A DNA stretch of 64,000 nt from assembly GCA_017483305.1 (NCBI GenBank), contig JAFULC010000009.1, forward strand, positions 7,337 to 71,336, in the 5' to 3' direction. Under the pieces are notes generated by a model that saw nothing but the letters and a program-made list of their open reading frames with translations, made no database searches and was not told the DNA's origin. Of this stretch, positions 23,370 through 54,562 are shown piece after piece. The position numbers were made by a program, and so were the translations under genes. Each line of letters opens with the position of its first letter. Position 1 is the first letter of the stretch. The DNA comes from Clostridia bacterium (lineage in GTDB: Bacteria > Bacillota > Clostridia > Oscillospirales > CAG-272).

Positions 23370-26030
23370 TTATTGAGCAAGCTCGTCGTTCACGTATACC
23401 CTCACGCTTATCCTATCCACAGTGATATCACCGCTCTCACGTGCGATTACCGCAGAGCCGGCACTCTGACCGTCCGCAACGAGATTCCACTCGCCCTCGA
23501 TCGTGCAAGGCAGATTCGTGTTATGGGGATTGACAACTACCATAGCCTTGCCGCCGTTTCCGTCGTCATAGGTAATGACAAGAATTCCGCTTCCAAGCTC
23601 CTCGTGAGTGATCACAGTGGAGTTATCCGTGAAGATACCGTATACCTTGCGCATCTCGATAAGTCCCTTGTAGTAGAGCATGGTTTCGTATTCTCTGCTT
23701 CCGCTCTTGAGAACCGACCAATCAATATTATTGACCGCATCGCTCGATTTATAACTGTTCTCATCGCCGCCCTTGGTGCGAAGCATTTCCTCGCCCGCCT
23801 GCCAGAAGGGCGTTCCCTTGGATATCATAAGGATCGCCGCACCAAGATTATTCATCCTATTGCGATCGCCGTCGGAATTGTCGGGATTTGATAGCAGAAG
23901 CTTATCCCAAAGGGTGTTGTTGTCGTGTGCACTCATATAGTTTATTACCATAGAGTCGGTAACTCTCCAGGTAGTACCCGATACCGCACCGCCGTTGACA
24001 CCGAACATAACCTTTATAAGATTAGCCTTCGCAGCGCCGCTTATAAAGCCCTTCGACTTTGCATCAAACACGCTTCCCTTCAAGCCATCGCGAATAGCAT
24101 CGTTGAATACCGCGATAGAGCCGATCGCATCGCCCGTAGGTGTGATCTGACTGATATTCGACTGATTTGCCTGTTTGCTTCCGTCAATGGTAGAGCCCAT
24201 AGTCCAACCCTCGCCGTACAGAATGGCGTTGGTATTGACGGTATGAACCGCGCTCTCAACCTCCTGCATAGTCTGAAGATCGTGGAGACCCATAAGGTCG
24301 AAGCGAAGTCCGTCAAGCTTGTATTCCTCGACCCAGTAAGCCGTGGAGTCGACCATAAACTTACCGTACATATATCTTTCAGATGCAGTATCGTTTCCGC
24401 ATCCGCTCGCAGAGGAATTCGCGCCCGACGAGGTGTATCTTTAATAGTAGTAAGGAACTATCTTGTTAAACGAGCTGTTAGCATCGTAGGTATGGTTGTA
24501 AACCATATCCATAATGACACCGATGCCTGCCTCGTGCAGAGCCTTCACCATCTCCTTGTATTCGCGGATTCTAACCTCGCCGTTATAAGGATCGGTGGAG
24601 TAGCTTCCCTCGGGAACGTTATAGTTTTCGGGGTCGTATCCCCAGTTGAACTGATCGTCGGGATGAGTCTCGTCAACCGACGCGTAGTCGTATACGGGAA
24701 GCAGATGCACGTGAGTGATACCGAGATTTACAAGGTAATCAACACCGACCGCCTCTCCGTGTTCGTTAACGAGTCCTCTCTCGGTGAACGCGAGATATTT
24801 GCCCTTGTACTGCGAGGATGCGATCTTATTGGAGAAGTCTCTTACGTGAACCTCCCAGATGATAGCATCGGAGTATTTTTCGATGGGAGAAGCAAGGATA
24901 GCATCATCCCAACCCTCAGGATCGGTAAGCGAAAGATCAACGACCATTCCGCGCTTACCGTTAACGCCTGCCGCCTTTGCGTAGGGGTCGACCGCCTCCT
25001 GAGTACCGACCGCGGTAGTAACCGTATAGGTGTAGTATGTGCCGTGACCGCACGCCTCTGTGTGCGACCAAACTCCCTTTTCACCCCTGACCATCTCAAC
25101 GGTCTTATAAGCATCAACGCCGTTGCCCTTCTCAAAGAGATTGAGCACCACCTTGGACGCCGTGGGAGCCCATACCTTGAACGTGGTGTTGTCGCCGTCT
25201 ATGATAGCTCCGAGATCGTTGCCGTCGTAGTGATAATTTTCAGCGAAATACTCGCTATCAAAAATGCCGGTAGGAACAACCGCCTTCTCGCCGTAGCCCT
25301 CGATAACTACGCGATAATTCTTCGACAGATCAAGAGTCTCGCCGACTACGATATATCCCATAGCCGCTTCCTTGCCGAGAGTGGAAATGCTTTCAACTGC
25401 TATCTCTCTGTCGCCCTCGTAGACCTTGACCCTGCTAAGCTCAGATATGGTATCCTTGGGTGTGATCCTGTACTGGATCTTATTTTCCTCGACCATACCT
25501 GCCATTGAAAATTTCTTTATCATTGTAAGAGTTTTTCCTCCATCGTTGCTACTGTACTGCTCAGGATCGCCGGGCTTGAGATAAATAAACGTCTCCTTGC
25601 CCTCGATGATCGCAAATCTGTCCTGCTCAAAATCCTTGGTTGCGCTGCCCCATGAGCTTCCTCCGGGCTCGGAGCAATCTCTGCGGACGATAAATCCGAC
25701 CTCCTCTACGCCCTCGGGCACGTTAATTACCACCTTCGCGCCGTAAGAGCACTCGTGGAAGGTATATCCCTGACCCGCCTTATCGCCCCACCAGATCCAA
25801 ATATCGCAGTTTTCATAAGTGCCGTTATAGGTCCAGTAAAGCGTCAGCTGATTATATCCGTCCTCAAGAGGAAGCTTATACTCATCCTCGGGATTCCAGG
25901 TCTGTCCGGTGGTCGTTTCCTCGGTTGTCTCCTCACCGTTTCCGACGTGATTGTCACACGCGGTCAATATCAGGGAGAATATCATCAGAAACACCAGGGT
26001 CATCGAAACGAAACGAAGTGTCTTTTTCAT
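23370..26030 (-). pseudogene. pulA: Type I pullulanase (GH13) interrupted by a single in-frame TAA at 24441-24443
   Basis: Track ORFs 24441..26081 and 23370..24371 are in the same frame. Read-through gives ...DMVYNHTYDANSSFNKIVPYYY*RYTSSGANSSASGCGNDTASERYMYGKFMVDSTAYWVEEYKLDGLRFDLMGLHD.... Lipobox LTAC|DNH follows ATG 26030. Confidence 0.8.
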
Positions 26031-29674: not shown

Positions 29675-29760
29675 AATCAAACCTCTTTCAAAAATATTTT
29701 TACTACACCTTATTGTAGCACATTTATCGCAAAATGTAAATATAAATTTCAACCAAATTG

Positions 29761-29792
29761 AGAAAAAGCCGAAGGGAAAGGCTCCCGTCGGC
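29761..29792 (-). terminator. Intrinsic terminator after the ADP-ribosylglycohydrolase gene
   Basis: Minus strand: GCCGACGGG-agccttt-CCCTTCGGC (one mismatch) followed by TTTTTCTC. Confidence 0.5.
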
Positions 29793-29800
29793 GACCAAAA

Positions 29801-30583
29801 TTATCTGCTTTTGAATTTCAGCACGACCTCACGCATGGGCTCGTCGAGATATGAAAGAGCCTTTTTCCTTTCGCCCTCGCTAATGCCGTAATAAGCCTCG
29901 GCAACCGCCCCGCAGATAGCACAAAGCGTATCACTGTCTCCGCCGATCGAAATTCCGTTGCGGATAGCATCCTCAAACGACACAGACTCAAAAAATGCCT
30001 GCATAGCCTGCGGCACCGTGCCCTGACAGGTCTCGTTGAATCGGTAGTTCGGACGTATTTCGTCAAGCGTGAAGTCCATTTCGTAATAGTCGCTTACAAA
30101 ATTCTTTATCTCCTCCACGACTGCACCCGTACGCGCAAGATAGGTTGCCCCCGCGGTTACGACCGCGCCCTTGATGCCCTCGGGGTGATTGTGAGTAACC
30201 TCAGCAGACGCCTTAGCCAAAGCCAGAGCCTCATCGAGAGATCTCGCATACCACGCCACAGGCGAAACTCGCATAGCCGAGCCGTTTCCGTAGCTGCCAT
30301 AAGGCTCTGTCTCCTCAGTCGTCAACCACAAGCCAAAATGACCGCCATAGCTCGCGTAAGGATACTTCTTTCCGTATCTGTGAAAGGTCTTCACCAAGGC
30401 CCTCTTGAATTCTTCCACGTCATTTATCTCATCAAACTGCATAAGTGTATCCGCAAGCGCAACCGTCATCACGGTGTCGTCAGTATATTCGCACAAAGGC
30501 GAAAAAAGCGGAAAATCTTTTGTCTTTATGTTGTCAAATTCGTAAACCGATCCTACGATATCTCCAAAAATTGCACCTATCAT
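29801..30583 (-). CDS. ADP-ribosylglycohydrolase (ARH/DraG family)
   Basis: MIGAIFGDIVGSVYEF...YTDDTVMTVA...GNGSAMRVSP...GGDSDTLCAICG are the family's metal-binding blocks. The start overlaps the upstream stop (ATGA). Confidence 0.85.
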   Translation of the reverse strand: MIGAIFGDIVGSVYEFDNIKTKDFPLFSPLCEYTDDTVMTVALADTLMQFDEINDVEEFKRALVKTFHRYGKKYPYASYGGHFGLWLTTEETEPYGSYGNGSAMRVSPVAWYARSLDEALALAKASAEVTHNHPEGIKGAVVTAGATYLARTGAVVEEIKNFVSDYYEMDFTLDEIRPNYRFNETCQGTVPQAMQAFFESVSFEDAIRNGISIGGDSDTLCAICGAVAEAYYGISEGERKKALSYLDEPMREVVLKFKSR

Positions 30584-31233
30584 TTTTTCTTTCCTCCCTT
30601 GTTAGCCTTATCGATCTTTTTTCTCCAACACGCGTTATCAAGATCACCTCCGTCTCTGAGGGTTACGATCGCATCGCTCATCGTCTCATAGGTAAGCTTA
30701 ACTCCCTTTGAATCCTGACGGTAATTTGCCGCGCGTTCCCTTCTGATTCCAATGCTCTCCGCAGTCTCTACCGCGTCGATATTTGCGGCGAGAAATATAA
30801 ACTCCCAGCCAAGCTCCTCGCGCTGACGCTCGATCTGAGCCTTTACCGTGCGGCTGTCATATCGGTGACTTGCATTCTCCATACCGTCGGTCGTGATAAT
30901 AAAGATCGTATGCTCGGGAACGTCCTCGGGACGCGCGTACTTATGAATGTTTCCGATGTGATGTATCGCGCCGCCGATAGCGTCGAGAAGCGCGGTGCAG
31001 CCCCTGACCTCATAATCCTTACGTGTCATAGGCTCGATCTCACCGATATCCACGCGGTCGTGCAACACCTCGCTGTAATTGTCGAAAAGGACTGTCGAAA
31101 CATAAACCTTACCCTCCTTTTCCTTCTGCTTTTCAATCATAGAATTGAAGCCGCCGATTGTGTCCGCCTCAAAGCCCGACATAGAGCCGCTGCGGTCAAG
31201 AATAAATACGATTTCTGTAATATTGTTTTTCAT
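30580..31233 (-). CDS. Cytoplasmic von Willebrand factor A (vWA) domain protein
   Basis: MIDAS motif FILDRSGSMSG ... GCTAL ... TTDGMEN. 217 aa with no signal peptide. Confidence 0.8.
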   Translation of the reverse strand: MKNNITEIVFILDRSGSMSGFEADTIGGFNSMIEKQKEKEGKVYVSTVLFDNYSEVLHDRVDIGEIEPMTRKDYEVRGCTALLDAIGGAIHHIGNIHKYARPEDVPEHTIFIITTDGMENASHRYDSRTVKAQIERQREELGWEFIFLAANIDAVETAESIGIRRERAANYRQDSKGVKLTYETMSDAIVTLRDGGDLDNACWRKKIDKANKGGKKK

Positions 31234-31240
31234 AATAAAA

Positions 31241-31288
31241 ACCTCCCTTTGCTTTTGTGCTTTAATTATAGCACAAGCAAAAGGAGGT
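31241..31288 (-). promoter_or_regulatory. Long imperfect hairpin whose downstream arm contains the vWA gene SD and whose loop contains TATAAT
   Basis: acctccctttgcttttgtgct (31241-31261) pairs with agcacaagcaaaaggaggt (31270-31288). On the minus strand the hairpin is followed by TTTTTATT-ATG. Confidence 0.5.
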
Positions 31289-31310
31289 GTGGTCGCTCGT
31301 CGGGAGACTT

Positions 31311-32351
31311 TTAAACCCCCAGCGTTACCTGATCAAATTGATACAAGGTCTCGTTAACGTCGAAAATATCCTTATAATTACCCGTCATAATGAAATATTC
31401 AATTATCACGTCGAATTTATTGCTTCTCGAGAGAGACATCCCCACGGTGTTCAGCAGGTGATTGGTCTGTTCAAGGTTCAACCGCAGCGCGATCGCAAAG
31501 GATATCGCTGTGACCTTGCTGGGCTTGTAATTCTTGTTACATTTGATCTTTGAAAAGGTCTTTTTGTCGACGTTGGCACGCTTGTAGCACTCCACGTCCG
31601 AGATCCCCTTTTCATCTATATACCCAAACAGAGTCTCGGCAAAGCCCTTGTCCATTTCTTTTAGCATCTCGTCAAGACTTTTCGCGCTCTCAAAATCACA
31701 TTCGCTCGCAAGCGCGCGGGAGACCGAAAGCGATTCACTTCTGCAAATTTTCGACCGCGTTGACTTACTGTATTCCTCAAAATTGTAACTTTCCCTGAGC
31801 GAATCGTAAAATGGCGCGCGGCACTCCGAATAAGCATCGTCAATAAATGCAGAAACGTCGGAAAACAACCTCTCACTTATCGAATACGCGGTCTTGTCGA
31901 AGACCACGAGATAAATCAGCATCTCATTTTCAAAAAGAAAGTCGCCGATCACGTCCACCGCGATCTTAAGCACCCTGTCCTTTGGAAACCCGAATGTTCC
32001 CGAAGCGATCAGAGGAAATGCCACGCTTTTGCATTTGTTTTTCACGGCAAGCTCAAGGCAAGACGAGTAGCAGGAGCGCAAGATTGCCTCCTCGCCGTAA
32101 TCTCCGCCTTCCCACACGGGTCCTACGGTGTGTATCACGTATTTGCACGGGAGTGAAAACGCGGGAGTTACTACCGCTTGACCCTCCAGAAGATCTCTCT
32201 GCTTCAAGCAGGCGCGGTAAAGCTCCTCACCCGCCGCCTCGTGTATCATCGCATCGACTCCTCCGCCGTGTGAATAATACGTATCGGTAGGATCGACTAT
32301 CGCATCGCATTTTATTTTGGTTATATCCTGTCTGATTATCTTAAGCGGCAC
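31311..32351 (-). CDS. Macro-domain (ADP-ribose-binding/hydrolase) protein with C-terminal HTH-like domain
   Basis: GTG start with a GGAGGTGA SD. DAIVDPTDTYYSHGGGVDAMIHEAAG...VIHTVGPVW...SVAFPLIASGTFGFP are macro-domain blocks. The C-terminal KRANVDKKTFSKIKCNKNYKPSKVTAISFAIALRL looks XRE-HTH-like. Confidence 0.8.
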   Translation of the reverse strand: MPLKIIRQDITKIKCDAIVDPTDTYYSHGGGVDAMIHEAAGEELYRACLKQRDLLEGQAVVTPAFSLPCKYVIHTVGPVWEGGDYGEEAILRSCYSSCLELAVKNKCKSVAFPLIASGTFGFPKDRVLKIAVDVIGDFLFENEMLIYLVVFDKTAYSISERLFSDVSAFIDDAYSECRAPFYDSLRESYNFEEYSKSTRSKICRSESLSVSRALASECDFESAKSLDEMLKEMDKGFAETLFGYIDEKGISDVECYKRANVDKKTFSKIKCNKNYKPSKVTAISFAIALRLNLEQTNHLLNTVGMSLSRSNKFDVIIEYFIMTGNYKDIFDVNETLYQFDQVTLGV

Positions 32352-32490
32352 AGTCTCACCTCCATTCGAAATATACGTGTGCTATCAGATATCCTCGATC
32401 TTGATCAGATTCGTCTTGCCCAACTGACCCACAAATGATCTTGTCTCCGCTTCTATTATACCACGATATTGCAATTAGTTCAATAGAGTT

Positions 32491-32538
32491 TTGCAAAATA
32501 AGCGACCGTCTTTCTCCAAAGGAGAGAGACGGTCGCTT
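32491..32538 (-). terminator. Intrinsic terminator ending the tubulin-like operon
   Basis: Minus strand: AAGCGACCGTCT-ctctcctttggagaa-AGACGGTCGCTT followed by ATTTTG, 17 nt after the cvpA-like stop. Confidence 0.65.
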
Positions 32539-32554: not shown

Positions 32555-33289
32555 TTAACGCAGTGATTTAAGTACGTGACCTATTGCACCAAGCGTATCA
32601 AATTCATTTAGGAACTTGAATACGTAGGATTTTTCATAGATCGTCATTACGCCTGTGCTTGTATCAAACGCAAGCGACACCTGGAATCCCGTGTACAGCA
32701 GGAGTGCAACGCCAAGCGCCGCCATATATCCCACCACAGCACCCGAAACGAATCCGGTAACATGATCGAAGAAGGTCAGAATGACGTGATCGTCACTGCG
32801 GTCAACCTTGCGCTCGATCCACCAGAAGAATACTCTCGGGATCACGAAACAGACGATGTAACCGATGATAGTAGAAACCATCGCGATACAGGGGGTTGCG
32901 ATCTGAATTGCCATACCGTTTAATATCTCGGTGCTGGCCTCGGAATAGCTACCGTACTGTGCCTCAAGCTCCGCAAGACTGATTCCCTGATGATTGAGGA
33001 AGTTTACGAAGTTTTCGGGCAGATTTTCAAACAGCTGCACAAGATCGTAGCCGTTCGCATTTTTCTCAACGATGCTGGTAAGTGTCTTAAGCACTCCGCC
33101 AACGATCCAATCGTGAAGGAACAGGTCTGTAAGCAGGCCCGCAAGCCAAGGACCGAGAATAACCGAGCAGAAAACTGCAAGCCAGGTCTTTCCGATCTTT
33201 CTAACCGTTTTTGCAAATCCGAATTTTGTAAAAATGATTACGAATATCAAAAACAGTACTACGAGTATAGCATCAATTACAATTGACAT
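32555..33289 (-). CDS. cvpA: CvpA-family (colicin V production-like) membrane protein
   Basis: 244 aa, 4-5 TM. The N-terminus MSIVIDAILVVLFLIFVIIFTKFGFAKTVRK is typical of CvpA proteins. SD is GAGAGGAAA. Confidence 0.6.
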   Translation of the reverse strand: MSIVIDAILVVLFLIFVIIFTKFGFAKTVRKIGKTWLAVFCSVILGPWLAGLLTDLFLHDWIVGGVLKTLTSIVEKNANGYDLVQLFENLPENFVNFLNHQGISLAELEAQYGSYSEASTEILNGMAIQIATPCIAMVSTIIGYIVCFVIPRVFFWWIERKVDRSDDHVILTFFDHVTGFVSGAVVGYMAALGVALLLYTGFQVSLAFDTSTGVMTIYEKSYVFKFLNEFDTLGAIGHVLKSLR

Positions 33290-33324
33290 TTCTTTTTCCT
33301 CTCTATCAAATAATAATGCTAAAA

Positions 33325-36300
33325 TTACTTCTTGCTTCTCTTGTCGTTCTTTTTAGGCGACTCGAAAGCAATATAAAGCACACCTGCATCGGTAACGTAG
33401 AATCCGTATCCTCTTTCAAGAAGCTTCTGGGCGTTCTTGCCCTTCTTGCCAAGCTGATTGCGAGCAAGCGCAACCAAACGGGACGCGTTTCCGTTCTTGC
33501 ACAGAGTTTCCATAGCATACTTGGCCTGAGCCTTGGTGCTGAATCTGATTCCGACAACGAAATCACCCATTTCACCAGCGTTATATCTGAGTGCGGATTC
33601 GGAGAGGATACGAACGATCTCCTCTTCCTTGTAGGACTGCAAATATGCGTTGTGGTATCTGAAATACTCGTGGTTGGTATTATGGAACTTCTCAAGAGTC
33701 GGATACAAGGACTCTCTGGGATAGTGGAGAGGCTCCTGACCCTCGGGCGTGCGGATAAATTCCTCGAAAGGAGTACAGCAGTAGTCGTACCAAACCATAT
33801 CCTTCATTCTGTCGCCGCTCTTGGTGTTGGAGGAATCTCCCCAGGTAGCGTCGATATAGTAGCAATACTTGCCTATCTTCAGAATGTTGAATGCGTGGCA
33901 GCTGCCGCCGTCGTTGCTTACACGGCTTATCGTGTAACCGCAAACGATACCTACGGACTGCAACAGATACTGAAGCGCCGCAGCGTATCCCGCACAAACG
34001 ACCTTGTGCTCAACGAGTGCGCTATGCAACGATCTGAGCTTGTCATCCTGCTTTGTATCGCGATCCAATCCCGCGTCAAGACCAATGCCGTCATAATCAA
34101 GCGTCAGAATAAGTCTGCGGTAGATCGTCAGCAATGCCTTGTAAGGATCGGTCTTCTTGGTTATGCCTCTTGTAAAGGTCTTAGCTCCCTTGCGAAGCTC
34201 TGCCCTCTTCTTGTTGATCTGCTTGACGTCAAGCACTCCGTTTGCATTCTTGCAACGGAAATTATGTCTGACGGTCTCGCTGGTGTACATATAGGAGTTC
34301 AGCCAGAAGAGCTCGGGATAGTCACCCTTTATGTAGATAAAGACCTGCTCAAGCTCGGAGTCGGTAATTCCCTTACGGGATATAGGCTCCTCGCTATAGT
34401 TATAAGCGGCTCTCACGAGATCGTTATAAACACGGATCTTAGGATTGGTCTTCTCGTCCTCCTCGTAAGGAACGATGCGCTCACCGGGAGTGCCCTTCTT
34501 CTTAAGCAACGAGGAGAGCTTCTTGCTGCTCTTCTTTTTCTTGTCCTTCTTTTGAGACTTCTTCTTTGCGCTGTCGTCGTCCTCATCGGAGGTCTGATCG
34601 TCGTCAAGAGCGGGATCTCCGTCAACTACGTCATTATCAGTATTCTTATCGTCTTCAACGACCTTGTTGTCATCATCGACAACCTGATCATCGTCAACAA
34701 CAGGCTCTTCATCCACGACAGTATCGTCCTTTTTCTTCTTTTTAAAGAGATCGCGCAGAGAGAACTTCTTCTTTTCCTTCTTTTTCTTGGTGTCCTTATC
34801 GTCCTCCTCGGGAGTCTGATCGCCATCAACCACGTCATCAGTGACGGTGTTATCCTCATCGGAGATTTCGTCCTCGGCATCGCCAAGAAGCTCGTCAAAG
34901 TCTGTCTCGTTAGGCGCATTGATGTTATCGGTCATGAGATCGTTCGAGAATTCGCCGTCTCCGACATCATCCTCTTCCTCATCTCCGTCCTCGTCCTCGG
35001 GAAGCTCCTCCTCCCTGCCGTCCTCTGCCTTCTGATTGCGCAAATAACGCTTCCAGAATCTCGGAACCTTGTTGGGATCGTAGAGTCCGTCGGAGTAGTC
35101 CTCGTCGGTCTCATCCTCACCGTCATCCGACTGACCTCCGCCAAGCTCCTCGTACTTCATACGCAGGAAGCTGAAGCTGGTTCTTCTCGGACGGTCGGCA
35201 TCATTTACGGTGTCCTTCTTATCTTCGCTCTTTTCTTCGTCCTTATCCTTGGGAGTTTCGTTGGTATCCTCCTCGGTATTTTCATCCGACTCAGGAGTCT
35301 CGTCCGTGGATTCGTCCCCCGAATCCTTCTTCTCGTCAAGATCGTTGCAAGCTATATACTCCGCGATCTCGTCGAGCTTGGATTTAATAGTGACGTCGAG
35401 AGCCTCGAGTATCCAGTCTGCCGACTCGTCTTTTCCGATCGAGCGCAGATACAGAAGCTCCTCGTAATAGAGCTGAGCCGCCGCATAGTCGATCATAAGC
35501 TGATTATCCGACTGCCACATTCCGATAAGACCTCTGAGCAAGGACACACGGACGTTGGTAATAGGATCGTCGCGCTCGACGAATACGGTACGCTCGGTTG
35601 TATCCAAGCGATAATAATATTCACTGAGCGACTGCTCCTCCTTAAGATCGCCAACGGGATCAAACGCGGATTTAAGCACACCGATAGAGATCTCAGGATA
35701 AGTCTTCTTGAGATATTCTCTCATTTCGGCAAGCATATCGTCGAGCTTGTCGGGATCGTCAACTGTCTCGAAGCAATCAGCACAAATATAACGATTGTTA
35801 TCAAAGAGCGAATATCTGCCGCTCTCCATAACCTTGTGACAGAATGCACAACGCTTGGGCTTTTCGTCCTCAATATCGTCTCCCGCGGTCTCAACGTCGT
35901 GCTCTCCGAGGTCGGAAAGAAGGAGGTTGTATCCCTCGAGGAGCTTACAGCAGCCCTCAAGATCATAGCACTCGGGCAACTGATCGCCGCCGAAATAGAT
36001 GTAATGCTCAAGCTTAGGTCTTATCTTCAGCCAGTGGAGGTAGGAGTAGATATTTGCAAGGAATTCCTGCATATATCTTCCCGAAGGGTCATAAAGCCAA
36101 TCGAAAACGCCAACGTCCTCAAAGCAATCGTTAATAACGAAGAAGGTGATGCGGTTGGGATCGGTCTCGATGAACTCCTCACCGGGATGCTTCAGATAAG
36201 GATAAAGTGCCTTGATATGCTCTATCTCGGTCTCAGGCTCGACCGTTTCATCAAACGGCAGAGGCTCTGCAAGCACGGGACAGAAGGATATACAATGGTA

Positions 36301-39300
36301 AGATTTCGGGAAGATCGTTTTTGCGAACTCGTTGAATGCAGCAGCAAGGAGCAATCTCATGCCGTCCGTACACTCCATACGGGTCTCAAACTCGACCTTG
36401 AGAATACGTCCGTCGCCGATCTGTCTGGTGTGAGGATGCGGCACGTGGGGATTACCGTCGATACCGTCCTTGTGATAGAAGTCAAGAGTCTGCTTGTCGC
36501 TCGTAAGACCGTAGAAGCCGTACGTCTCGCCGATAAACTTGGCCTGACACTTGGTAACACGGATCTCCTCAAGCATAAGCTTTGTGTTGTGAAGAATACC
36601 GACCTTCTCGAAAGGAACGACCGAATCAACGCTGTATCTACGGAGATGAACGGTATCAAGACAGTTGCGGAGCTTGACGTTTTCGTGTCTGAGACAGATA
36701 ACGCGTCCGTCTGCCGAAATATGCTCGATCTCATACTCAGCGTTGTTATAAAGTATGCTCTGTCCAACGATATATTCAAGATGAACGCGACTCGGGAAGG
36801 AATCGAGCACACCGATGGTCTTATCGTTAAGACGAAGCTCAACGCGATCGTTGCAGTGAAGCAGACGGTCGAGAATCTCATGCATTCTGTTGAATACGAT
36901 GGTCTTCTCCTTCGTCAGCGTGTAGGAATCGACCTTTGCGGGATCGATAACGAGGTAAAAGTCCTTCGCACGATGTCCGATACTCTCTGCGAAGCATCTG
37001 TTCTCCTCCTGCTCGCTGTAATAAATGTCGGTGTCGCAGAGACCTGCAACAAGATATGCGGCAAGCTCACCGAGCTTAAGCTCATTTACAGGCTTACTTG
37101 CAACCAGACGCTTACAGAATACGGAGGAAATAATATCTCCTCTTTCAAGGCTGAAGGTGATGACCTCTCGCATCTTCTTCTCAAAATCCTTGACAAGAAT
37201 ACCGCCGTCGAGATCGAAGCTACAGAAAACGCGCATCAAGGAGAGCTTGTGGCGCTCAATATGCTCGGTAACTCTGGGCTGGATGAACGAAGAACGGTTG
37301 ATAAAGTCCTCCGTAGCCATCTTGGAGATATAGTATTCACGGAGCAAGTAGGGCTTGCTCAGAATGTGAACTATCGACTTTTTCTTTCCACGGAAACGTG
37401 TGCAGGCATAGATCGATGCAGAAAGGTTGCATCTGTGGTCCGAGTAGACCATGTAGTTTACGTCGGCAACGTCGCGGTGGAATTTATTGATCTCAACGTT
37501 GTGGCTTGCGAGTATCTTCTTCTCTGCGTGGTCGAGAGGAGATTCCGTGATAACTCTTACACCGTCAACGTTGTATTTGAAAGCAAGATTTGCGATGATA
37601 AACTCAAGGCTGGTCAGCTTCTGACCGTACTTGCTATAAATTCTGTGGCTCTTACTCTCCTTGTTCCACAGAACGTAGGATACCGACTCGTTTTCCTTTG
37701 CGCTACTGAAGGATAGCACGTGCTCAACGCCAAAGAATTTGGGCAGGCTGCTCGCCGCAAAGCCCTGATAGTAGTCGAGAGTAAGGAATGCGAATCTGAT
37801 ACGTCCCTCGGTAGCCTTAATAAGACTGTTGGAGATAAGCGAGCAGAGGTAGCTGTCGAACGAAATAACGCGGTCAGCATCAACGAATATTGCATCGGAT
37901 ACCTCTTCAAAGAACGCAGGATATCTCGAAACCATAGCTCCGTCGCGGAAATCCTGAGGCGACGCTATAAGTATGTCTGCCTGATCAAGTCTCTCCTCGG
38001 AGGTGTAAACTCGCCAGTTATGCGCCGCGGAGCTACCCGTGAGTCTCATAAGACGCTCGCAGATAAATCTGCGAAGGGTTATTCTCTCCTCGGGGTCCTC
38101 GACTACGAAGATCAAACGCTCGCCCGAAAGCAGACGTATGTACGTATATGCAACCAGATATTCACCCAGCTCGGAATAGAAGGACGCCGCAAAATAGACG
38201 TGCTCGTCGTTAAACATAGCGTCGATGCACTCCATATAGCTCTCTACGGTGTGTCCCGCATAAGAATCCATCTGCTTACGGATGTATTCGAGAGCACTTG
38301 CGTAGGTGCTGCTGGTAGGCTTATACTTGGTTACCTTGTCACGCTTTGCCTCGGGATAGTAGCGCAAAGAGTGCTCGCCGTCAAAGCGTTTTTTGAGCTC
38401 GGAGAGGACCTTGCGAAGACGCGCCTCAAGCTTATTGTCGGCAACGGCCTTCTTTTCCTCCTCCTTCTTCTCTTCCTCCTCTTCCTCAGGCTTCGCGGTA
38501 TTGAAAATATTGCAAAGCTCCTGAAGGAAAATTACCGAGAATACGGGATACAGATACCAATCGCCTATCTTAAATACGTTTATAAGCATATCGTAGAGCA
38601 TCTTCGGCAACGGGAAGAAGACCGAAAGAAGAACTACGCCTATAAAGAACAGATACAGGATCTCAACAAGCACAATAAAGCACTGGAGAACCATTCTCGT
38701 GCGAACTACCCAGCTGCGCGCGTACTGGAACTGGTCTCCCTCAAAGAAGAGACCCAAGAAGAACGAGGATACGGGACCGTAAAGCTTTTCCTCAGGCTCG
38801 TTTTTGTCCTCACCGTCGCCCTCGGTGCCCTCGGGCTTCTCCTCATCCGTCTCCTCCTCGTCATCATCGTCCTCAAGAGTATGAAGGAACATGGCGATTC
38901 GGTTGTTCTTGCGCTTCTTTTTGCTGTCCTCCTCGGAGGGTGTTTCCTCCTCGGTGACCTCGGCTGCCTCTTGATCCTTTTTCTTGTCAAGATGCTTTTT
39001 GGTAAGCTTGAACAAGGGATCGACAACAAGCTTCTTAAGCAATATCTTAAGGAATACGAATGCATAAAGAGCAAGAAGATTTACGATCACAAGCTTGATC
39101 GCGAAAATGATGAAATCCACCTGCGAATTCAAGGAATTGACCGCATTCGTGATCAGCTTACCGACAAACGGTATTCCGCCGATAAACGCCGAAAGCTTAT
39201 TGAAAAGCGAGAAGATTATTGCAAATACAATAAACTCAACGGCAATAAGAATAAGGAAAAATACGTTTTTTCTGTTATGCGGCGTGTGATACTTTACCGA

Positions 39301-39405
39301 CGACGCAAACGAAAGCTTCTTGAGCTTTCCGGGAAGCGGAATGAACGGATATGATAAGATGAGCAGTATGCCGATAGTTAAAATGACCTTTATCGCTGTT
39401 ATCAC
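33325..39405 (-). CDS. Giant (2026 aa) polytopic membrane protein: N-terminal TM region, degenerate SF2-helicase-like core, Cys4 ribbon, acidic/basic disordered region, C-terminal transglutaminase-like Cys-His-Asp domain
   Basis: GTG start is the first possible start after an in-frame stop and overlaps the upstream TGA (GTGA). TM helices in aa 1-330. ILIASPQDF / AIFVDADRV resemble helicase motifs Ib/II, but no Walker A is present. CAFCHKV...YICADCF lies at 35770-35860. VCAGYAAALQYLLQSVGIVCGY...SCHAFNIL...YYIDATWGD gives C1804/H1837/D1852. Confidence 0.85.
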   Translation of the reverse strand: MITAIKVILTIGILLILSYPFIPLPGKLKKLSFASSVKYHTPHNRKNVFFLILIAVEFIVFAIIFSLFNKLSAFIGGIPFVGKLITNAVNSLNSQVDFIIFAIKLVIVNLLALYAFVFLKILLKKLVVDPLFKLTKKHLDKKKDQEAAEVTEEETPSEEDSKKKRKNNRIAMFLHTLEDDDDEEETDEEKPEGTEGDGEDKNEPEEKLYGPVSSFFLGLFFEGDQFQYARSWVVRTRMVLQCFIVLVEILYLFFIGVVLLSVFFPLPKMLYDMLINVFKIGDWYLYPVFSVIFLQELCNIFNTAKPEEEEEEKKEEEKKAVADNKLEARLRKVLSELKKRFDGEHSLRYYPEAKRDKVTKYKPTSSTYASALEYIRKQMDSYAGHTVESYMECIDAMFNDEHVYFAASFYSELGEYLVAYTYIRLLSGERLIFVVEDPEERITLRRFICERLMRLTGSSAAHNWRVYTSEERLDQADILIASPQDFRDGAMVSRYPAFFEEVSDAIFVDADRVISFDSYLCSLISNSLIKATEGRIRFAFLTLDYYQGFAASSLPKFFGVEHVLSFSSAKENESVSYVLWNKESKSHRIYSKYGQKLTSLEFIIANLAFKYNVDGVRVITESPLDHAEKKILASHNVEINKFHRDVADVNYMVYSDHRCNLSASIYACTRFRGKKKSIVHILSKPYLLREYYISKMATEDFINRSSFIQPRVTEHIERHKLSLMRVFCSFDLDGGILVKDFEKKMREVITFSLERGDIISSVFCKRLVASKPVNELKLGELAAYLVAGLCDTDIYYSEQEENRCFAESIGHRAKDFYLVIDPAKVDSYTLTKEKTIVFNRMHEILDRLLHCNDRVELRLNDKTIGVLDSFPSRVHLEYIVGQSILYNNAEYEIEHISADGRVICLRHENVKLRNCLDTVHLRRYSVDSVVPFEKVGILHNTKLMLEEIRVTKCQAKFIGETYGFYGLTSDKQTLDFYHKDGIDGNPHVPHPHTRQIGDGRILKVEFETRMECTDGMRLLLAAAFNEFAKTIFPKSYHCISFCPVLAEPLPFDETVEPETEIEHIKALYPYLKHPGEEFIETDPNRITFFVINDCFEDVGVFDWLYDPSGRYMQEFLANIYSYLHWLKIRPKLEHYIYFGGDQLPECYDLEGCCKLLEGYNLLLSDLGEHDVETAGDDIEDEKPKRCAFCHKVMESGRYSLFDNNRYICADCFETVDDPDKLDDMLAEMREYLKKTYPEISIGVLKSAFDPVGDLKEEQSLSEYYYRLDTTERTVFVERDDPITNVRVSLLRGLIGMWQSDNQLMIDYAAAQLYYEELLYLRSIGKDESADWILEALDVTIKSKLDEIAEYIACNDLDEKKDSGDESTDETPESDENTEEDTNETPKDKDEEKSEDKKDTVNDADRPRRTSFSFLRMKYEELGGGQSDDGEDETDEDYSDGLYDPNKVPRFWKRYLRNQKAEDGREEELPEDEDGDEEEDDVGDGEFSNDLMTDNINAPNETDFDELLGDAEDEISDEDNTVTDDVVDGDQTPEEDDKDTKKKKEKKKFSLRDLFKKKKKDDTVVDEEPVVDDDQVVDDDNKVVEDDKNTDNDVVDGDPALDDDQTSDEDDDSAKKKSQKKDKKKKSSKKLSSLLKKKGTPGERIVPYEEDEKTNPKIRVYNDLVRAAYNYSEEPISRKGITDSELEQVFIYIKGDYPELFWLNSYMYTSETVRHNFRCKNANGVLDVKQINKKRAELRKGAKTFTRGITKKTDPYKALLTIYRRLILTLDYDGIGLDAGLDRDTKQDDKLRSLHSALVEHKVVCAGYAAALQYLLQSVGIVCGYTISRVSNDGGSCHAFNILKIGKYCYYIDATWGDSSNTKSGDRMKDMVWYDYCCTPFEEFIRTPEGQEPLHYPRESLYPTLEKFHNTNHEYFRYHNAYLQSYKEEEIVRILSESALRYNAGEMGDFVVGIRFSTKAQAKYAMETLCKNGNASRLVALARNQLGKKGKNAQKLLERGYGFYVTDAGVLYIAFESPKKNDKRSKK

Positions 39406-41471
39406 CGATCATCACTTCCTTTCTTCGGGAACATAGCCTCGATCGTCTCGATCGAGAATACCCTGTAAACTTTGTTATCCTTGGATCTGATAGGCTTGTT
39501 GACGTCGAACTCGCCCTCAACAGACTCATAAGGATCGAATATAGGCTCAACGTCGAGGTTATTAAGGATACCTGCAATGCGGTCCTTGACCTCGCGAAGC
39601 ATATCTCTGTGTCTCTGTATGTTGCGGTCTATAGCAACGTTAGCATCGTAAAAACGCTTCAACTGACGGATAGCGTATCTCTGACGCTCTATGTTAATAA
39701 GATCGATCTCGTAGCGGTGACGGATCTTGGACATCGAATAGGATTCCTTGCGTCTGCACTTTGCATAGCAAAGATTCATAGCCTCCTTGCACTTTCTCAG
39801 CTTACCGAGTATCGGAGCAAGGCGAATGATCGCCGCCAGAACGTAAAGACCTGCAAAAAGCATCAGCATATTGATCGCCAACAGCCAAACATTGATTCCC
39901 GAGCCGTAGTGAGCAAGCTGAAGCACGGTATAGGGCACGAATACGGCAATCATCGCGAGCAGCATTATGATAAGGTCGCCAAGCATCTTTTTGGGCAGGC
40001 AAGCCTTCGCGTTTACGTATTCGCGGTATATCTTGGTCGCGTTCTTCTTCTCTTCCTCAAAGTCAACGCTGATATAGTCGGCATCAAGAGCATCGGCAAA
40101 CAGATCCGATATCTTCTTCTGCTTGTCAGCAACAAGAGCGTCAAATTCTGCCTTGGAGGGACAGTAGGAGGTCTTTTTCAAAGCACCCTCGTGAATTCTC
40201 TCCTCAAATTCGATCTCCATGTTTCTCTCACGGGTCTCGTCTCTGCTGACAAGATATTTTTCCATTATATCGTCAAAGTCCTTGCGGTGATCCTCTGCAA
40301 CCTGCTCGGGAGTTCTCTCTGCCAGATAGCAGATCTTTTCATAGGTCTGCTCGACCGTGAGATTTTCCTTACCCAAGGAAAGAGGAATAGTATCCTGAGC
40401 GACTGCAGTGCCAAGCACCTCGTCGTAATCAGCTCCGAGATTGTCAGACAGTGCAATATATTTGGAATCGTTCGATTTAGCCACCTCAGATGCGATGCAG
40501 ACCTTGATCCACGCGGTCTCAAGCACTTCTTTAAGACGGTTGGCGTCAAGTCTGGATATCTTGATCTCGCCGTCTCGATCGAAGGACTCTTCTCTTTCAT
40601 ACATACGTATCAGATACAGCGACAAGGACAGAGTATCAAAGGCAAGTCTTGCCTTTCCTCCGCCGTAGCTCGTAACGTAATAGTAGCGTCTGATAGTAGA
40701 GCGAACGCCCATACGGTCGCGCAGCGCCTCAAAAAACTGACCGAGAGTCATCTTTGTCGAGCCGTAGGGATAGTCCTTCAGATAGAAGTTAAGTGACACC
40801 GTCGGGGTGCAATAGAGCGAGAAGGAGCTATACTGTACAAGGTCCTGCACCTCGGGGACAACGAATTCCTCGTCAACCTCATCGTCATAGCGCACGACGG
40901 GAAGATCCTCCGCGCCGTCCTTGGACTTATCCTTCTTTTTGGATTTTTTGTCACCCTCAAGCTCTTCCTTCTGCTTGTTCAGCTCCTCGACCTTAAGGCG
41001 CGCCTCCTCCTCAGAGCCCTCTACAACGTCAAGTCCTCCGAGCACCTGCTTAAGCTGCTCCTCAGCACCCTGAACGAACTCGTAGCGCTCGAGCTTGGAG
41101 TTCTGAACGTAGTAGATCTCAAAATCCTCGGCATAAAGCTCACGAAGCTCGAGATATGCGATCAGATTGTCCATCAGATACGCCTCGATATAGGGCATAT
41201 AAAGGCTGATGTCAACACCGGACTCACCGCCAAATCCAAGTCTGCCGTAAGGAACTCTTACACGGTCAAAGCCGTAAAAGTCGATAAGCACGGCAATTCT
41301 GAATCTGTCTGCGCCAAGAATATTCTGCTTTTCGAATATTTCCTGAGCGCACTGCTTTATCTCAGAAAGCAAACAGTTATGCCAACGGATCTTGTTGTAT
41401 CCGGCAAGGTCGAACAGTCTGTCACTGTCAAACGTTTTGTTCTCGGACGTATTTATTACATACGTTAACAT
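39402..41471 (-). CDS. Hypothetical 689-aa protein with central acidic coiled-coil-like segment and a TM hairpin near residue 500-560
   Basis: ATG with a GGGGA SD. Two hydrophobic helices (LIIMLLAMIAVFVPYTVLQL / VWLLAINMLMLFAGLYVLAAIIRL, nt ~39807-39985). No known motif recognised. Confidence 0.8.
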   Translation of the reverse strand: MLTYVINTSENKTFDSDRLFDLAGYNKIRWHNCLLSEIKQCAQEIFEKQNILGADRFRIAVLIDFYGFDRVRVPYGRLGFGGESGVDISLYMPYIEAYLMDNLIAYLELRELYAEDFEIYYVQNSKLERYEFVQGAEEQLKQVLGGLDVVEGSEEEARLKVEELNKQKEELEGDKKSKKKDKSKDGAEDLPVVRYDDEVDEEFVVPEVQDLVQYSSFSLYCTPTVSLNFYLKDYPYGSTKMTLGQFFEALRDRMGVRSTIRRYYYVTSYGGGKARLAFDTLSLSLYLIRMYEREESFDRDGEIKISRLDANRLKEVLETAWIKVCIASEVAKSNDSKYIALSDNLGADYDEVLGTAVAQDTIPLSLGKENLTVEQTYEKICYLAERTPEQVAEDHRKDFDDIMEKYLVSRDETRERNMEIEFEERIHEGALKKTSYCPSKAEFDALVADKQKKISDLFADALDADYISVDFEEEKKNATKIYREYVNAKACLPKKMLGDLIIMLLAMIAVFVPYTVLQLAHYGSGINVWLLAINMLMLFAGLYVLAAIIRLAPILGKLRKCKEAMNLCYAKCRRKESYSMSKIRHRYEIDLINIERQRYAIRQLKRFYDANVAIDRNIQRHRDMLREVKDRIAGILNNLDVEPIFDPYESVEGEFDVNKPIRSKDNKVYRVFSIETIEAMFPKKGSDDR

Positions 41472-41569
41472 TTATGTTTTTCCCCTTTCCAAAGCGGCAC
41501 GGAGCATCCGTAGCCGTTTTGAAGTACTCATTCCGCTTTCGCGGATAAAATAATTTCGATTGATTTTAT

Positions 41570-44386: not shown

Positions 44387-44509
44387 GAAGATTTCTCCCT
44401 TCGTTTCCCTGTTTTTTCCCCGCCTCGCCCCCGAGAATAAGGATCCTCGGGAAGCGAAGCGTTTTTGCTATGAGGCGAAAGCCTCACGGCTTATGTAGTG
44501 TTGTGGCAA

Positions 44510-47500: not shown

Positions 47501-48301
47501 GTCAAGCAGGAATACCTGCGAGAAGGGTGCAGCCTCAGGAGTCCAGAAGCGCTTGTCGGAAGCATCAAAGAGTACGCCTACGTTAGGCTCATCGGGGCTA
47601 CCGATACGGAAGCGGATGGGAGCCTTCTTCTTAGCCGCGAGACCTGCGTTGTAGTTGCGGGAAACGAGGTTGATAGCGTTAAGCTCACGAAGGATTGCAT
47701 ACGCGTTGGAATAAACCTTGATACGGTTTTCGGGAGTCTGGGAGTCTGCATAGATGTCAGGAAGAGCGATCATAGCGTTAACTATGGGGTCCTTACCGAG
47801 AGCCTTGCGGATGTAGCGCTTAGCATAGAGCGCGATCGGGATAAACGAGCCCGAGCCTGTACCGCCCGCAACGGATGCGATAACGTAAACCTCGCAGGAA
47901 GCACCGGGATCCTGAACCATATCCTCAAGCGCGCTGATGAATACGGAACGCTCAGCGGACTTGTTCATCAGGTTGAGGAATGCGAGATAGGACTTCTTAC
48001 GCCACTGGGATGCACCGCGGACCATCTCCTGAGAACGAACTGCCTGTACGTCGCAGGGGAACCACTCTCTGAGATGCTCTTTGCCAAGTCGGTCACAAAT
48101 GGTACCAACGCTTGCGGTATCGGACATCGCAACCGTCTTTGCAGCGGTGATTCTCTTCAAATCGCCGGCATCGGTATCGAATACAAGTGCCGTAACCTTG
48201 TTGTCGGTCTGATTTCCAAGCTCGTGATACTTTTTAAAGAAAGTATCAACCGCGTTACTACCGGTTCCGCCAACACCGATCAAAAGAATGTTCTTTTTCA
48301 T
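44510..48301 (-). CDS. Tubulin/FtsZ-superfamily protein, 1263 aa (FtsZ-type T1 loop)
   Basis: AAGGAGA SD. N-terminus ILLIGVGGTGSNAVD (compare FtsZ GVGGGGxNAV). Exact tubulin signature AGGTGSG at aa 145-151 (nt ~47849-47869). The antisense 1272-aa ORF is a shadow. Confidence 0.85.
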   Translation of the reverse strand: MKKNILLIGVGGTGSNAVDTFFKKYHELGNQTDNKVTALVFDTDAGDLKRITAAKTVAMSDTASVGTICDRLGKEHLREWFPCDVQAVRSQEMVRGASQWRKKSYLAFLNLMNKSAERSVFISALEDMVQDPGASCEVYVIASVAGGTGSGSFIPIALYAKRYIRKALGKDPIVNAMIALPDIYADSQTPENRIKVYSNAYAILRELNAINLVSRNYNAGLAAKKKAPIRFRIGSPDEPNVGVLFDASDKRFWTPEAAPFSQVFLLDRIPGLNSVAAHDMVLANSLYTIICTEIGAAFDSEFSNHELVRSQNNGSNAIYAGISTSQIRFPKDSVLEYLACKKTYDSCNGEWLIIHQAVENAIAEKGREAKAMKRTFIMENDAYARMLIEKVEEKQDENCDEVISLVERGVDQYNEKGERRSETIGELFLETIEGYISSKVPVAASIDAELEGIFPRDLSGGTFDKSNVISAAVDSRPILDKFYRRCFDTVKSIPTSTADAIITLEKKKIGVIGDKYSVVKNLLETKNGKMVHPVAAMIRLCQFRIALSEKLSVEPNDWPELKLRKAPALPEGFLTLDDKGGRTKSAYLGLGKTRFAEISDADVEPEEYNSKRTNATADMEALHNDVQQIANNVANEAYELVSFQVYSRIAADVDLLIAKYRNFFNRFEKEKEMLEDLTKDALRKDEDAIDSIINVYCSQKNKESIRLTLEEGNGPVTSEAVADTDDIVGRGVFASVFASAVAERSEDTGFNDKDSSAYRSLFSSMIAAYRTSIAKSELFGNIASYNVVEAIVTSCGDGASSKEIDDALRVSFSVAQDLAIPSLRLDVASVEDDLVVPSHIMVFMMSKNTARYIKRNAEKFGLSIPNDQNSEGAMLKACAEAFIRDFSGNSSARVAIVDSIPDQVLYCTGEVMDITPLRIAKFNELGEDCVYFKNYTEALARYKRYETDMWNPHLGNNLNKRGCLPYMNAKMEQACDEKMVKALIYGFQSGTIRYTDGMGEARGRYYFSCNGTKITDPEGKWINNKNIAQLLAWMRNEDELVEKWSARFDADVLRQKNALPSLASDNEGEVRNLEATLTNSPIIRILTESLYADSSRKTEQRPTADGEWNDRVGPTALEFAYMIKTSEELGRDCDDAERILRVLYKTFKEMISHRTSPETTPERFIQVYKQQLSKVYESFAGAEIVCRAGNECAAHFTQLVNWLQAADVFYTISDDMPMDETGKVLINSVFDYNRPSSKVKSVLNAIKNRSKKIASAPAEDAKA

Positions 48302-48381
48302 AATTTTTCTCCTTAAAAATTATATCAAAAATTTTAATTTCATTAATTTATATAGACCTTGAATGTATTTTCACATTCCGA

Positions 48382-52327: not shown

Positions 52328-52328
52328 T

Positions 52329-53075: not shown

Positions 53076-53121
53076 TAAAATTCTCCGTAAAAAGTCTCTT
53101 GCTTTTTCATTCACACTAACA

Positions 53122-53150
53122 AGTATACCATAGCTTTCACTTTTTTTCAA
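53122..53150 (-). promoter_or_regulatory. Candidate promoter of the YhhQ-like/SDR unit
   Basis: Minus strand: TTGAAA - 17 nt - TATACT, with a TGg extended -10. Confidence 0.45.
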
Positions 53151-53210
53151 CCCAAATTTATTCAAACACCGCATTTTTCAAACAAAATTTGATTTTTTAG
53201 TCTTTTTCTC

Positions 53211-54487: not shown

Positions 54488-54562
54488 CCGCTATGGCTAC
54501 TTGACAAAAAGCCACCCAAGGATGTATAATAAAATCAATAATAACAGAAAAGAGGTCAAAAA

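Follow-up and report, generated by a model that had tools for sequence, protein, structure and literature searches.

Host systems centred on an ADP-ribosylglycohydrolase (ARG) have been predicted, computationally, to counter viral ADP-ribosylation in actinobacteria, planctomycetes and proteobacteria (Iyer, Burroughs, Anantharaman and Aravind 2022, Viruses 14:1977, section 3.8; PMC9503650). In these predictions the ARG core is accompanied by a Nudix or WYL sensor with a domain of the helix-turn-helix (HTH) type and by Macro or NADAR accessories (PMC9503650). Here we compare them with a three-gene locus on the minus strand of the window, by which we mean the whole 64,000-nucleotide stretch that was analysed (positions 7,337 to 71,336 of contig JAFULC010000009.1, assembly GCA_017483305.1, Clostridia bacterium). 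The locus encodes a macro domain fused to a predicted DNA-binding domain (macro-HTH), a small von Willebrand factor A (vWA) protein, and an ADP-ribosylhydrolase (ARH), the counterpart of ARG.

Neither the described systems nor our locus has a linked transferase or sirtuin (here, among the families listed). Both have a sensor-HTH regulator, a sensory role that macro-HTH would fill, and both combine ARG and Macro components with a vWA protein (there termed a peptide-binding 'chaperone') in a conserved core with variable embellishments. Phosphatase and Nudix add-ons recur as well, HD_4, His_Phos_1 and NUDIX genes lying beside some loci related to ours. However, ARG is the core there and optional here, where it occurs in about 18-20% of genome loci (14 (+2) of 80), and the Nudix or WYL sensor is replaced by Macro fused to an XRE-like HTH. 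A coupled phosphatase (rhodanese-phosphatase, HD, calcineurin-like or HAD) is among the parts described there but absent from the window and sporadic elsewhere. Of the partners here, vWA is the most constant. Bacillota and their phages are the hosts, and a defined operator-promoter can be named. On our best reading, the locus would be a variant of these anti-ADP-ribosylation systems that belongs to Bacillota and their phages.

The regulator would have a parallel in NrtR (Rodionov et al. 2008, PMC2330246), which likewise joins an enzyme-derived ADP-ribose-binding domain to a C-terminal DNA-binding domain and which controls nearby genes by way of a palindromic operator. The two are non-homologous: NrtR has a Nudix domain rather than Macro, a winged HTH rather than an XRE-like one, and a regulon of NAD biosynthesis and salvage rather than vWA and ARH. 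DarT-DarG and DraT-DraG also reverse ADP-ribosylation through a macro domain or an ARH, but their cognate transferase is encoded next door and none was among the families listed here. Activators of the RNPP/Rgg/ComR type combine an XRE HTH with a sensor and use a palindromic box that stands in for the -35 element, its distance from a good -10 box being fixed. Unlike the window regulator, they have an N-terminal HTH, a TPR sensor and a peptide ligand. Finally, MacroD/YmdB hydrolases and the window macro domain have a common fold, ~40% identity, glycine-rich and G-x-F/Y-G loops and an Asp-His pair, but the hydrolases stand alone, whereas the window domain is fused to the predicted DNA-binding domain and has Asp at the position of the catalytic Asn.

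We propose, with a probability of roughly 0.55, that the locus would be a two-unit regulon in which a one-component regulator sensing ADP-ribose switches on vWA, with or without ARH. Its features are given below; structures were predicted (AF2) and searched with Foldseek, and the profile libraries used were Pfam, NCBIfam, PHROG, PADLOC and Rfam. Hairpins were identified by RNA folding, a rule-based terminator scan having missed all three owing to its loop and stem rules.

32500-32538, T-run to about 32491, minus strand: intrinsic terminator hairpin of the upstream CvpA/giant-protein operon (RNA fold, equalled by 0 of 200 shuffles)
32455-32483, minus strand: predicted sigma-A-type promoter of the macro-HTH gene, TTGAAC, 17 nt, TG-n-TATAAT (10 of 12 matches plus the TG, best of the region)
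31311-32351, minus strand: macro-HTH gene, 346 residues, GTG start after GGAGG (Pfam Macro)
31857-32351, minus strand: macro domain, residues 1-165, MacroD/YmdB type (Pfam, PDB matches, alignment)
31677-31856, minus strand: linker, residues 166-225, helical then disordered, variable in length and sequence (alignment gaps; block-mean predicted local distance difference test, pLDDT, of 37-39 at about residues 201-220)
31314-31676, stop codon 31311-31313, minus strand: C-terminal domain, residues 226-346, predicted five-helix XRE-like HTH plus two helices (AF2)
31291-31308, minus strand: predicted inverted-repeat operator GTCTC-CCGACGA-GCGACC, starting 3 nt past the macro-HTH stop (conservation)
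31265-31270, minus strand: predicted -10 box TATAAT with TG at -15/-14 and no -35 consensus (TAnnnT spacing; start probably near 31258)
31242-31288, minus strand: long hairpin, then UUUUUAUU (-30.4 kcal/mol, z -5.20)
30580-31233, minus strand: vWA gene, 217 residues, small cytoplasmic protein (AF2/Foldseek, metal-site motif, PHROG 7371)
29801-30583, minus strand: ARH3-like ADP-ribosylhydrolase gene, 260 residues (Pfam ADP_ribosyl_GH, PHROG 6572)
29768-29792, minus strand: terminator-like hairpin and U-run at the end of the vWA-ARH unit (minimum free energy fold of 29745-29805; energy unexceptional, z -1.52)

The three open reading frames (ORFs) stand where a first-pass annotation, made by a model from the sequence alone, had placed them, and the ATGA overlap it described between the vWA and ARH genes is present at 30580-30583.

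Conservation of the macro-HTH and vWA genes

A vWA-anchored search of one-genome-per-species contigs returned 80 loci, drawn from Oscillospiraceae, Acutalibacteraceae and Lachnospiraceae among others. Of the 66 with at least 2.5 kb of upstream flank, 61 have macro-HTH upstream of vWA and on its strand. The pairing also occurs in Negativicutes (Selenomonas pSRC2), Peptostreptococcales (Peptoclostridium) and Bacilli (Niallia taxi), as well as in the complete Heliusvirales phage genome PV036457 from human faeces. Recurrence across Bacillota classes and in a whole phage genome puts the arrangement far beyond chance. IMG/VR loci anchored on the C-terminal domain of macro-HTH had an N-terminal macro domain in 45 of 45 cases and vWA in 25 of the 30 with at least 3.5 kb of downstream sequence. 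Both whole-protein homologue searches yielded at least 8000 candidates each.

The window-type ARH adjoins vWA in 14 of the 80 genome loci, where it follows vWA (3), directly precedes it (9) or lies between macro-HTH and the cis-element (2). A second, longer ARH family follows vWA in 2 further loci of the 80. The first-pass annotation had put forward vWA and ARH as a pair whose conservation should be examined; with ARH adjacent in so few loci, the trio is not the conserved unit, which by these counts is macro-HTH, a putative operator-promoter and vWA, with ARH facultative. Its broader claim, that the genes are functionally linked around an ADP-ribose theme, is borne out by the conserved linkage and by the macro and ARH assignments. 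In the window, ARH is to all appearances translationally coupled to vWA through the ATGA overlap. Such coupling is tight wherever the genes meet (the overlap, gaps of 1-13 nt, one fusion), which argues that the two proteins would work together where both are present. The fusion is a single in-frame ARH-vWA ORF in a metagenome-assembled genome (MAG; L031, 5197-6657) that arises through loss of the ARH stop codon, reading ATTAAAAAGGAG where relatives read GAAATAAGGAG; it could be genuine or a MAG sequencing error.

Apart from the genes above, flanking genes are unrelated from locus to locus, and those downstream of vWA are nearly all singletons, which leaves nothing conserved past vWA/ARH. Such variability would suit counter-defence cargo of phages or integrative elements, directed against ADP-ribosylating or ADP-ribose-signalling immunity (DarT-like, CmdT-like or TIR/Thoeris-like), the window copy being leftover or domesticated. 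The module's presence in phage PV036457 and in many IMG/VR contigs would also fit, as would matches of all three proteins to PHROG families and loci resembling integrative and conjugative elements (ICE-like) that have relaxase/MobC genes and place a Y-family polymerase and YolD between macro-HTH and vWA. However, the window and its close relatives hold the module among housekeeping genes with no phage genes beside it, and sensor-inducible control suits a resident response better than an early anti-defence gene. We regard cargo as decidedly unlikely to be the explanation, and it is in any case compatible with the two-unit regulon rather than exclusive of it.

Among the side observations on inserted genes, an ArsC/Spx/glutaredoxin-like gene of 116-130 residues stands between the macro-HTH stop and the operator in 11 genome loci (for example L012 5546-5908 and L049 5543-5896). 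Seven ICE-like loci with MobC/relaxase genes (L006, L009, L016, L017, L022, L024 and L044) have three genes between macro-HTH and the operator (2417-5899 in L009), encoding a 510-residue protein of no recognised kind, a Y-family DNA polymerase (IMS) and a YolD-like protein, with a SIMPL/DUF541 gene after vWA. These inserts hint at a link between the module and DNA-damage tolerance. Scanning 51 inserted or adjacent ORFs returned, among the families listed, HD_4 three times, His_Phos_1 once, NUDIX, an MBL-fold hydrolase, a nucleoside 2-deoxyribosyltransferase-like family (Nuc_deoxyrib_tr), methyladenine glycosylase, GmrSD and AAA_21. An HD phosphohydrolase also occurs in the phage carrying the module.

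The repeat-promoter element and its candidate regulator

The 77-nt gap between macro-HTH and vWA in the window holds an inverted repeat, a TATAAT box and a hairpin. The repeat, GTC[G/T]C-N7-G[C/A]GACC, was found in 71 of 81 sources, at one gene-strand site per locus directly upstream of the vWA/ARH unit; elsewhere on the gene strand it matched once (L016) in 861 kb. The consensus of 107 distinct leaders was aAAaTGTCGCtTgcCA.GCGACCAaa followed, after 20 nt, by TATAAT, with TAnnnT located 19-21 nt past GCGACC in 101 of the 107 against a background of ~6%. The first ORF after strict repeats was vWA in 103 cases, ARH in 8, an ARH-vWA fusion in 1 and another gene in 1, no ORF being called at 15 sites. 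If other genes come between ARH and vWA, a separate repeat accompanies each of the two (Selenomonas L084 and viral L112 and L117). We also scanned all IMG/VR contigs by DNA pattern alone (TGTCGC-N7-GCGACCA-N19-TAnnnT), which gave 42 matches, with chance matches roughly estimated at ~20; 29 of the 39 evaluable matches were followed within 31-58 nt by vWA (27) or ARH (2). The strict pattern ending in TATAAT matched one viral contig only, and the relaxation to TAnnnT made the scan informative.

The spacing between repeat and -10 box is constant whether the hairpin lies between them or begins at the -10 box. Because it holds irrespective of hairpin position, the repeat and -10 box would constitute one DNA-level unit, with the hairpin separate. 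Assuming a transcription start ~7 nt past the -10 box, the repeat would be centred near -41 and would replace the -35 element. The window hairpin carries the -10 box in its loop and the vWA Shine-Dalgarno sequence in its 3' arm, is followed by a U-run, and is likely a terminator for macro-HTH transcripts; related loci have equivalent hairpins of different sequence. Transcripts from the internal promoter would lack the 5' arm, leaving the Shine-Dalgarno sequence free, while transcripts from upstream would terminate. The first-pass annotation picked up neither this cis-element nor the division of the locus: the macro-HTH and vWA-ARH genes look like two transcription units with a terminator overlapping the regulated promoter between them. 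The 5' untranslated region of macro-HTH, measured from its predicted promoter, would be ~100 nt long, and it lacks significant structure (fold z -0.30). Upstream of macro-HTH genes in 60 loci we found neither the operator nor a shared motif (GCGACC/GGTCGC in 2 of 60). Because the repeat is absent there, macro-HTH gives no sign of regulating itself through it.

The repeat and hairpin could also be viewed as a cis-acting RNA, an attenuator or riboswitch-like leader to which macro-HTH is a mere neighbour. The layout, with a small stem ahead of a terminator hairpin in which the Shine-Dalgarno sequence is sequestered, does resemble an attenuator, the repeat variants GTCGT/GCGAC and GTCGT/GTGAC would form G-U pairs, and the structure of the long hairpin persists from locus to locus despite changes of sequence. 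Yet the commonest variant, GTCTC/GCGAC, creates a U-C mismatch in 16 of 71 sources, and TAnnnT stays 20 nt from the repeat wherever the hairpin lies. Moreover, the inner bases of the repeat co-vary with HTH residues, the repeat is missing wherever macro-HTH is missing, and Rfam returned noise only for the whole window (gathering threshold) and for the leader (E up to 10). Together these make an RNA element very unlikely.

Across vWA-anchored viral loci, 28 had both the repeat and macro-HTH, 30 had neither, 7 had macro-HTH only and 6 had the repeat only (Fisher odds ratio 20, p 8e-8). The 'macro-HTH only' loci that we inspected carry degenerate repeats (GTCAA...TTGAC, GTCGT...GCGAC and GTCCA...TTGAC). 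The 'repeat only' loci have flanks of at most 5 kb, while ICE-like loci hold inserts of up to ~5 kb between macro-HTH and the repeat. Neither is present with the vWA homologues of Fusobacterium and actinophages. The inner two bases of the 3' half-site also co-vary with the start of the predicted recognition helix. Helices of the form N-[VIL]-D-[KR]-[KR] are paired with GC (18 distinct combinations), those of the form N-x-S-[KR]-Q with TT (4 of 4) and one N-x-S-K-G helix with GA; for three D-x-K proteins the half-site is off by a single base. Such co-occurrence and co-variation are what one would expect of a regulator and its operator.

Within macro-HTH, conservation is highest in the C-terminal domain, which exceeds the macro domain in our alignment. 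In the AF2 model it consists of 5+2 helices (pLDDT about 80-93), with the five-helix bundle spanning residues 237-301 and the predicted recognition helix starting NVDKKTFSKIK. Profile comparison by hhalign placed it in register with SinR as a weak match (E 0.003, probability 11%) and matched it, again weakly, to a mini-profile assembled from XRE sequences (P 4e-4, probability 34%). Pfam returned no HTH family for the domain alone (E up to 10) or for 45 homologues (E up to 1), and a PDB search with the domain profile gave nothing useful. The domain is present in 5894 representative clusters at 50% identity. In all 150 of these that were listed it occupies the C-terminal end; 73 of the 150 have a clear macro domain, and several others start macro-like (MPL..I..) but are short and degenerate, some of them maybe fragments. 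Two viral contigs (L108 and L109; ~5697-6020 and 7712-8035) have, downstream of operator-vWA-ARH, another copy of the domain that has diverged (35% identity) and lacks a detectable macro domain; it may be an alternative regulator.

XRE-family proteins are mostly repressors. Macro-HTH could accordingly guard an abortive-infection or toxin-like effector by blocking the -35 region until ADP-ribose from infection or NAD cleavage derepresses the promoter, vWA being harmful or growth-arresting and ARH accessory. The terminator overlapping the promoter doubly insulates vWA, which suggests that leakage is costly; the extended -10 box of the window (TGnTATAAT) could work without a -35; and defence-type neighbours (GmrSD, AAA_21) occur. 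Negative one-component regulators have also been proposed in the analogous systems (Iyer et al., PMC9503650). Against this, most of the promoters lack both a -35 and an extended -10, which is more typical of activator dependence, and PADLOC gave no match. We know of no toxic activity of a 217-residue vWA domain, and vWA is strongly conserved, unlike fast-evolving effectors. A repressor-guarded effector thus seems to us unlikely.

Domain readings and the proposed regulon

The macro domain matches Pfam Macro (PF01661) at 4.1e-36 over residues 19-131, with 123.9 bits against a cut-off of 22. Its nearest PDB entries by sequence are YmdB (E. coli), DR_2288 (D. radiodurans), Oceanobacillus MacroD and human MacroD1/2, and its AF2 model superimposes on YmdB (Foldseek E 5e-16, root-mean-square deviation 1.5 A, template modelling score for the target 0.86). 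The adenine-contacting D16 and G30-G31, D33 and H37 are invariant, the loops read GGGVD and SGTFGFP, and the Asp-His pair of the MacroD type is kept in the alignment. At the position of the catalytic Asn, however, the window protein has Asp (VDPTD, V19-D20-P21-T22-D23; codons 32283-32294). This equivalence was established by alignment to DR_2288 and PARP14, and it leans as well on viral macrodomains that we take to correspond. Among 115 close homologues the position is Asp in 66 (57%) and Asn in 49, and more distant proteins with the same C-terminal domain have short, degenerate macro-like N-termini. Because of this toggling and of the degenerate N-termini in relatives, selection mainly for binding, as in NrtR, would fit the macro domain, with residual hydrolysis possible.

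These residues bear on the initial view of the locus as having two different erasers. ARH has intact metal-ligand motifs. For the macro domain that view is doubtful, given the Asn-to-Asp replacement and a protein that appears to behave as a transcription factor, the predicted target of its HTH being the promoter of the other two genes.

The best partial NCBIfam matches of macro-HTH are O-acetyl-ADP-ribose deacetylase models, and the surrounding genes are metabolic. Ordinary metabolism, with a YmdB-like deacetylase, an unrelated vWA and a housekeeping ARH brought together by chance, would account for both. Nevertheless, the NCBIfam matches fall below the curated cut-offs (146 vs 200 bits), and the conserved linkage, common cis-element and phage occurrence rule out chance adjacency, making this explanation extremely improbable.

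The 217-residue protein scores below threshold for Pfam VWA (PF00092; 15.4 bits vs a cut-off of 23.8), has no NCBIfam match, and PDB sequence searches with the protein and its profile returned no match. Its AF2 model (pLDDT 90.6, predicted template modelling score 0.90) matches vWA/I-domains, including TRAP and integrin I-domains (Foldseek E 3e-9, probability 1.0). Judged by its predicted fold, the protein is a vWA domain despite failing sequence profiles. Homologues are named VWA (NCBI) or YegL (JGI), and the protein matches PHROG 7371 at 2.7e-57. The residues of its metal-ion-dependent adhesion site (MIDAS), D13-x-S15-x-S17, T80 and D116, are invariant in 36 homologues, as is a HHIGNIHKYARPEDVPEHT loop, and most members have a basic C-terminal tail. 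No signal peptide was evident by inspection, strand 1 beginning at residue 5. The initial description of a cytoplasmic, MIDAS-complete vWA protein is therefore upheld. Identity across genome loci is 62-77%, and mean column identity in the 36 homologues is 79%.

Homologues with 35-55% identity to vWA occur without macro-HTH or the operator in phage and viral loci (L082, L083 and L127-L173), where they sit in phage replication/recombination modules beside an annotated single-stranded DNA-binding protein. As side observations, other neighbours there, read from the sequence, are a possible P-loop-like ATPase, an HD-like protein and a possible thymidylate synthase; some Microbacterium phage records label the vWA-homologue gene 'DNA ligase'; and the Fusobacterium (L086) and L120 versions have an N-terminal signal-peptide-like extension.

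ARH matches Pfam ADP_ribosyl_GH (PF03747) at 9.6e-36, with 124.3 bits against a cut-off of 26.2, and PHROG 6572 at 1.7e-56. Its nearest relative is ARH3 (1.9e-17), and it is not a DraG or Tri1 equivalog (60 vs 337 bits and 49 vs 490 bits). The motifs GDIVGSVYE (GDxxGxxxE), YTDDT and GGDSDT align with those of ARH3, which we take, as in ARH3, to supply the ligands of a binuclear metal centre.

In the two-unit regulon that we favour, the first unit would be macro-HTH, whose MacroD-type N-terminal domain would bind, and may slowly process, ADP-ribose or an ADP-ribosyl adduct, while its XRE-like C-terminal HTH, presumably as a dimer, would recognise GTC[G/T]C-N7-G[C/A]GACC. The second would start from a promoter without a -35 element, its -10 box 20 bp past the repeat, insulated by the overlapping terminator from upstream transcription, and would drive the MIDAS vWA and, in this genome, the coupled ARH3-like hydrolase. 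A rise in ADP-ribose species, possibly caused by the ADP-ribosyltransferases that phages, toxins or other mobile elements supply or by NAD-cleaving immunity, would lead to ligand binding by the macro domain, altered promoter occupancy and production of vWA and ARH. Activation is favoured, from a site centred near -41. ARH would then remove ADP-ribose from targets, and vWA would bind a modified or affected partner through its metal site.

The first-pass annotation had suggested a regulated ADP-ribosylation cycle with a dedicated writer, encoded elsewhere or novel. This is unsupported. Its view that no writer is linked is borne out within the scope of the scans: Pfam scans of the window had no ART, PARP, DarT, SIR2 or TIR family among the matches listed (25 of 36 families in one of them), no transferase was among the families listed for inserted or adjacent genes, and no DarT lies beside the macro gene in the window or related loci. 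A response to extrinsic ADP-ribosylation or to an ADP-ribose signal fits better.

Several points weigh against the regulon. The macro domain retains most catalytic features, so that its main action may be enzymatic. For the C-terminal domain there is no Pfam HTH match and profile comparisons are weak (probability 11-34%), the co-variation of helix and operator may reflect one or few evolutionary events, and about a quarter of the repeats are imperfect (GTCTC/GCGAC). The vWA family also exists without macro-HTH, in phage replication modules and in secreted forms, and does not require an ADP-ribose role; most loci lack ARH, so ADP-ribose removal by ARH cannot be the core activity. Many IMG/VR 'viral contigs' may be prophage flanks or integrative elements. 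Lastly, none of macro-HTH, vWA and the CvpA-like protein matched in PADLOC, where ARH gave only a weak match of chance level.

A bolder version, which we advance only tentatively, is that macro-HTH could be the first bacterial transcription factor with a macro-domain sensor, governing a small, widespread ADP-ribose regulon in Bacillota and phages, with vWA as a new ADP-ribose-linked effector or reader. The MIDAS metal might then engage the diphosphate of ADP-ribose or an ADP-ribosylated acidic residue, and vWA might sequester modified targets or the modifying enzyme. In the searchable literature, which is thin in subscription journals, we found neither a macro-HTH regulator nor the macro-HTH/vWA pair described. 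ADP-ribosylation and ADP-ribose signals are central to phage-bacteria conflict, and little is known of how bacteria sense them and respond transcriptionally. As a hypothesis the locus is compact, comprising a named regulator, an 18-bp operator that carries a specificity code (D-x-K/GC, S-x-Q/TT), a promoter of fixed geometry and one or two outputs. The families are common in gut Clostridia, and a function would annotate thousands of hypothetical proteins called 'macro domain-containing' or 'VWA domain-containing'. Experiments on the ARG/vWA systems, so far known only as predictions, would gain a starting point as well.

Chromosomal setting of the locus

The terminator that the first-pass annotation placed between the trio and the upstream operon corresponds to the hairpin at 32500-32538, which folds at -34.2 kcal/mol (z -7.05). 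Upstream of the trio are a CvpA-like gene (32555-33289) and an operon of ~18 kb on the minus strand (33325-51399). The operon encodes a 2026-residue protein with a weak transglutaminase-core match, proteins of 689 and 1005 residues, and two Tubulin_2 proteins of 938 and 1263 residues. It resembles the firmicute tubulin-containing GTPase-centred conflict systems (Kaur et al. 2020).

One relative, whose vWA protein is 80% identical, has the trio immediately beside Vut_1 and SDR genes; the window counterparts of these two (51674-53174) lie on the far side of the tubulin island. Because the trio directly adjoins Vut_1/SDR in that relative, the tubulin operon at 33.3-51.4 kb looks like an inserted island. 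Genes of the tubulin operon, CvpA and flavin reductase were found near vWA in 0 of the 80 related loci, the sole flavin-reductase match being ~6 kb off (L023). We accordingly rejected a functional link of the trio to any of the three, and the doubt already voiced over the adjacency of the tubulin-like operon was justified: the adjacency, absent from all 80 related loci, is not functional.

Very long plus-strand ORFs run antisense to genes at 23925-25508, 33283-37716, 37720-39354 and 44498-48316, the longest (1477 residues) opposite the gene for the 2026-residue protein. They were rejected as genes, being low-complexity mirror frames. The remainder of the window (1-27564 and 53273-63981) is ordinary chromosome, with sugar ABC transporters, alpha-amylase, GH77, GH53, IMP dehydrogenase, serine dehydratase and a MerR regulator, and one ORF in this part matches Imm26 (immunity protein 26) at 1.3e-18.

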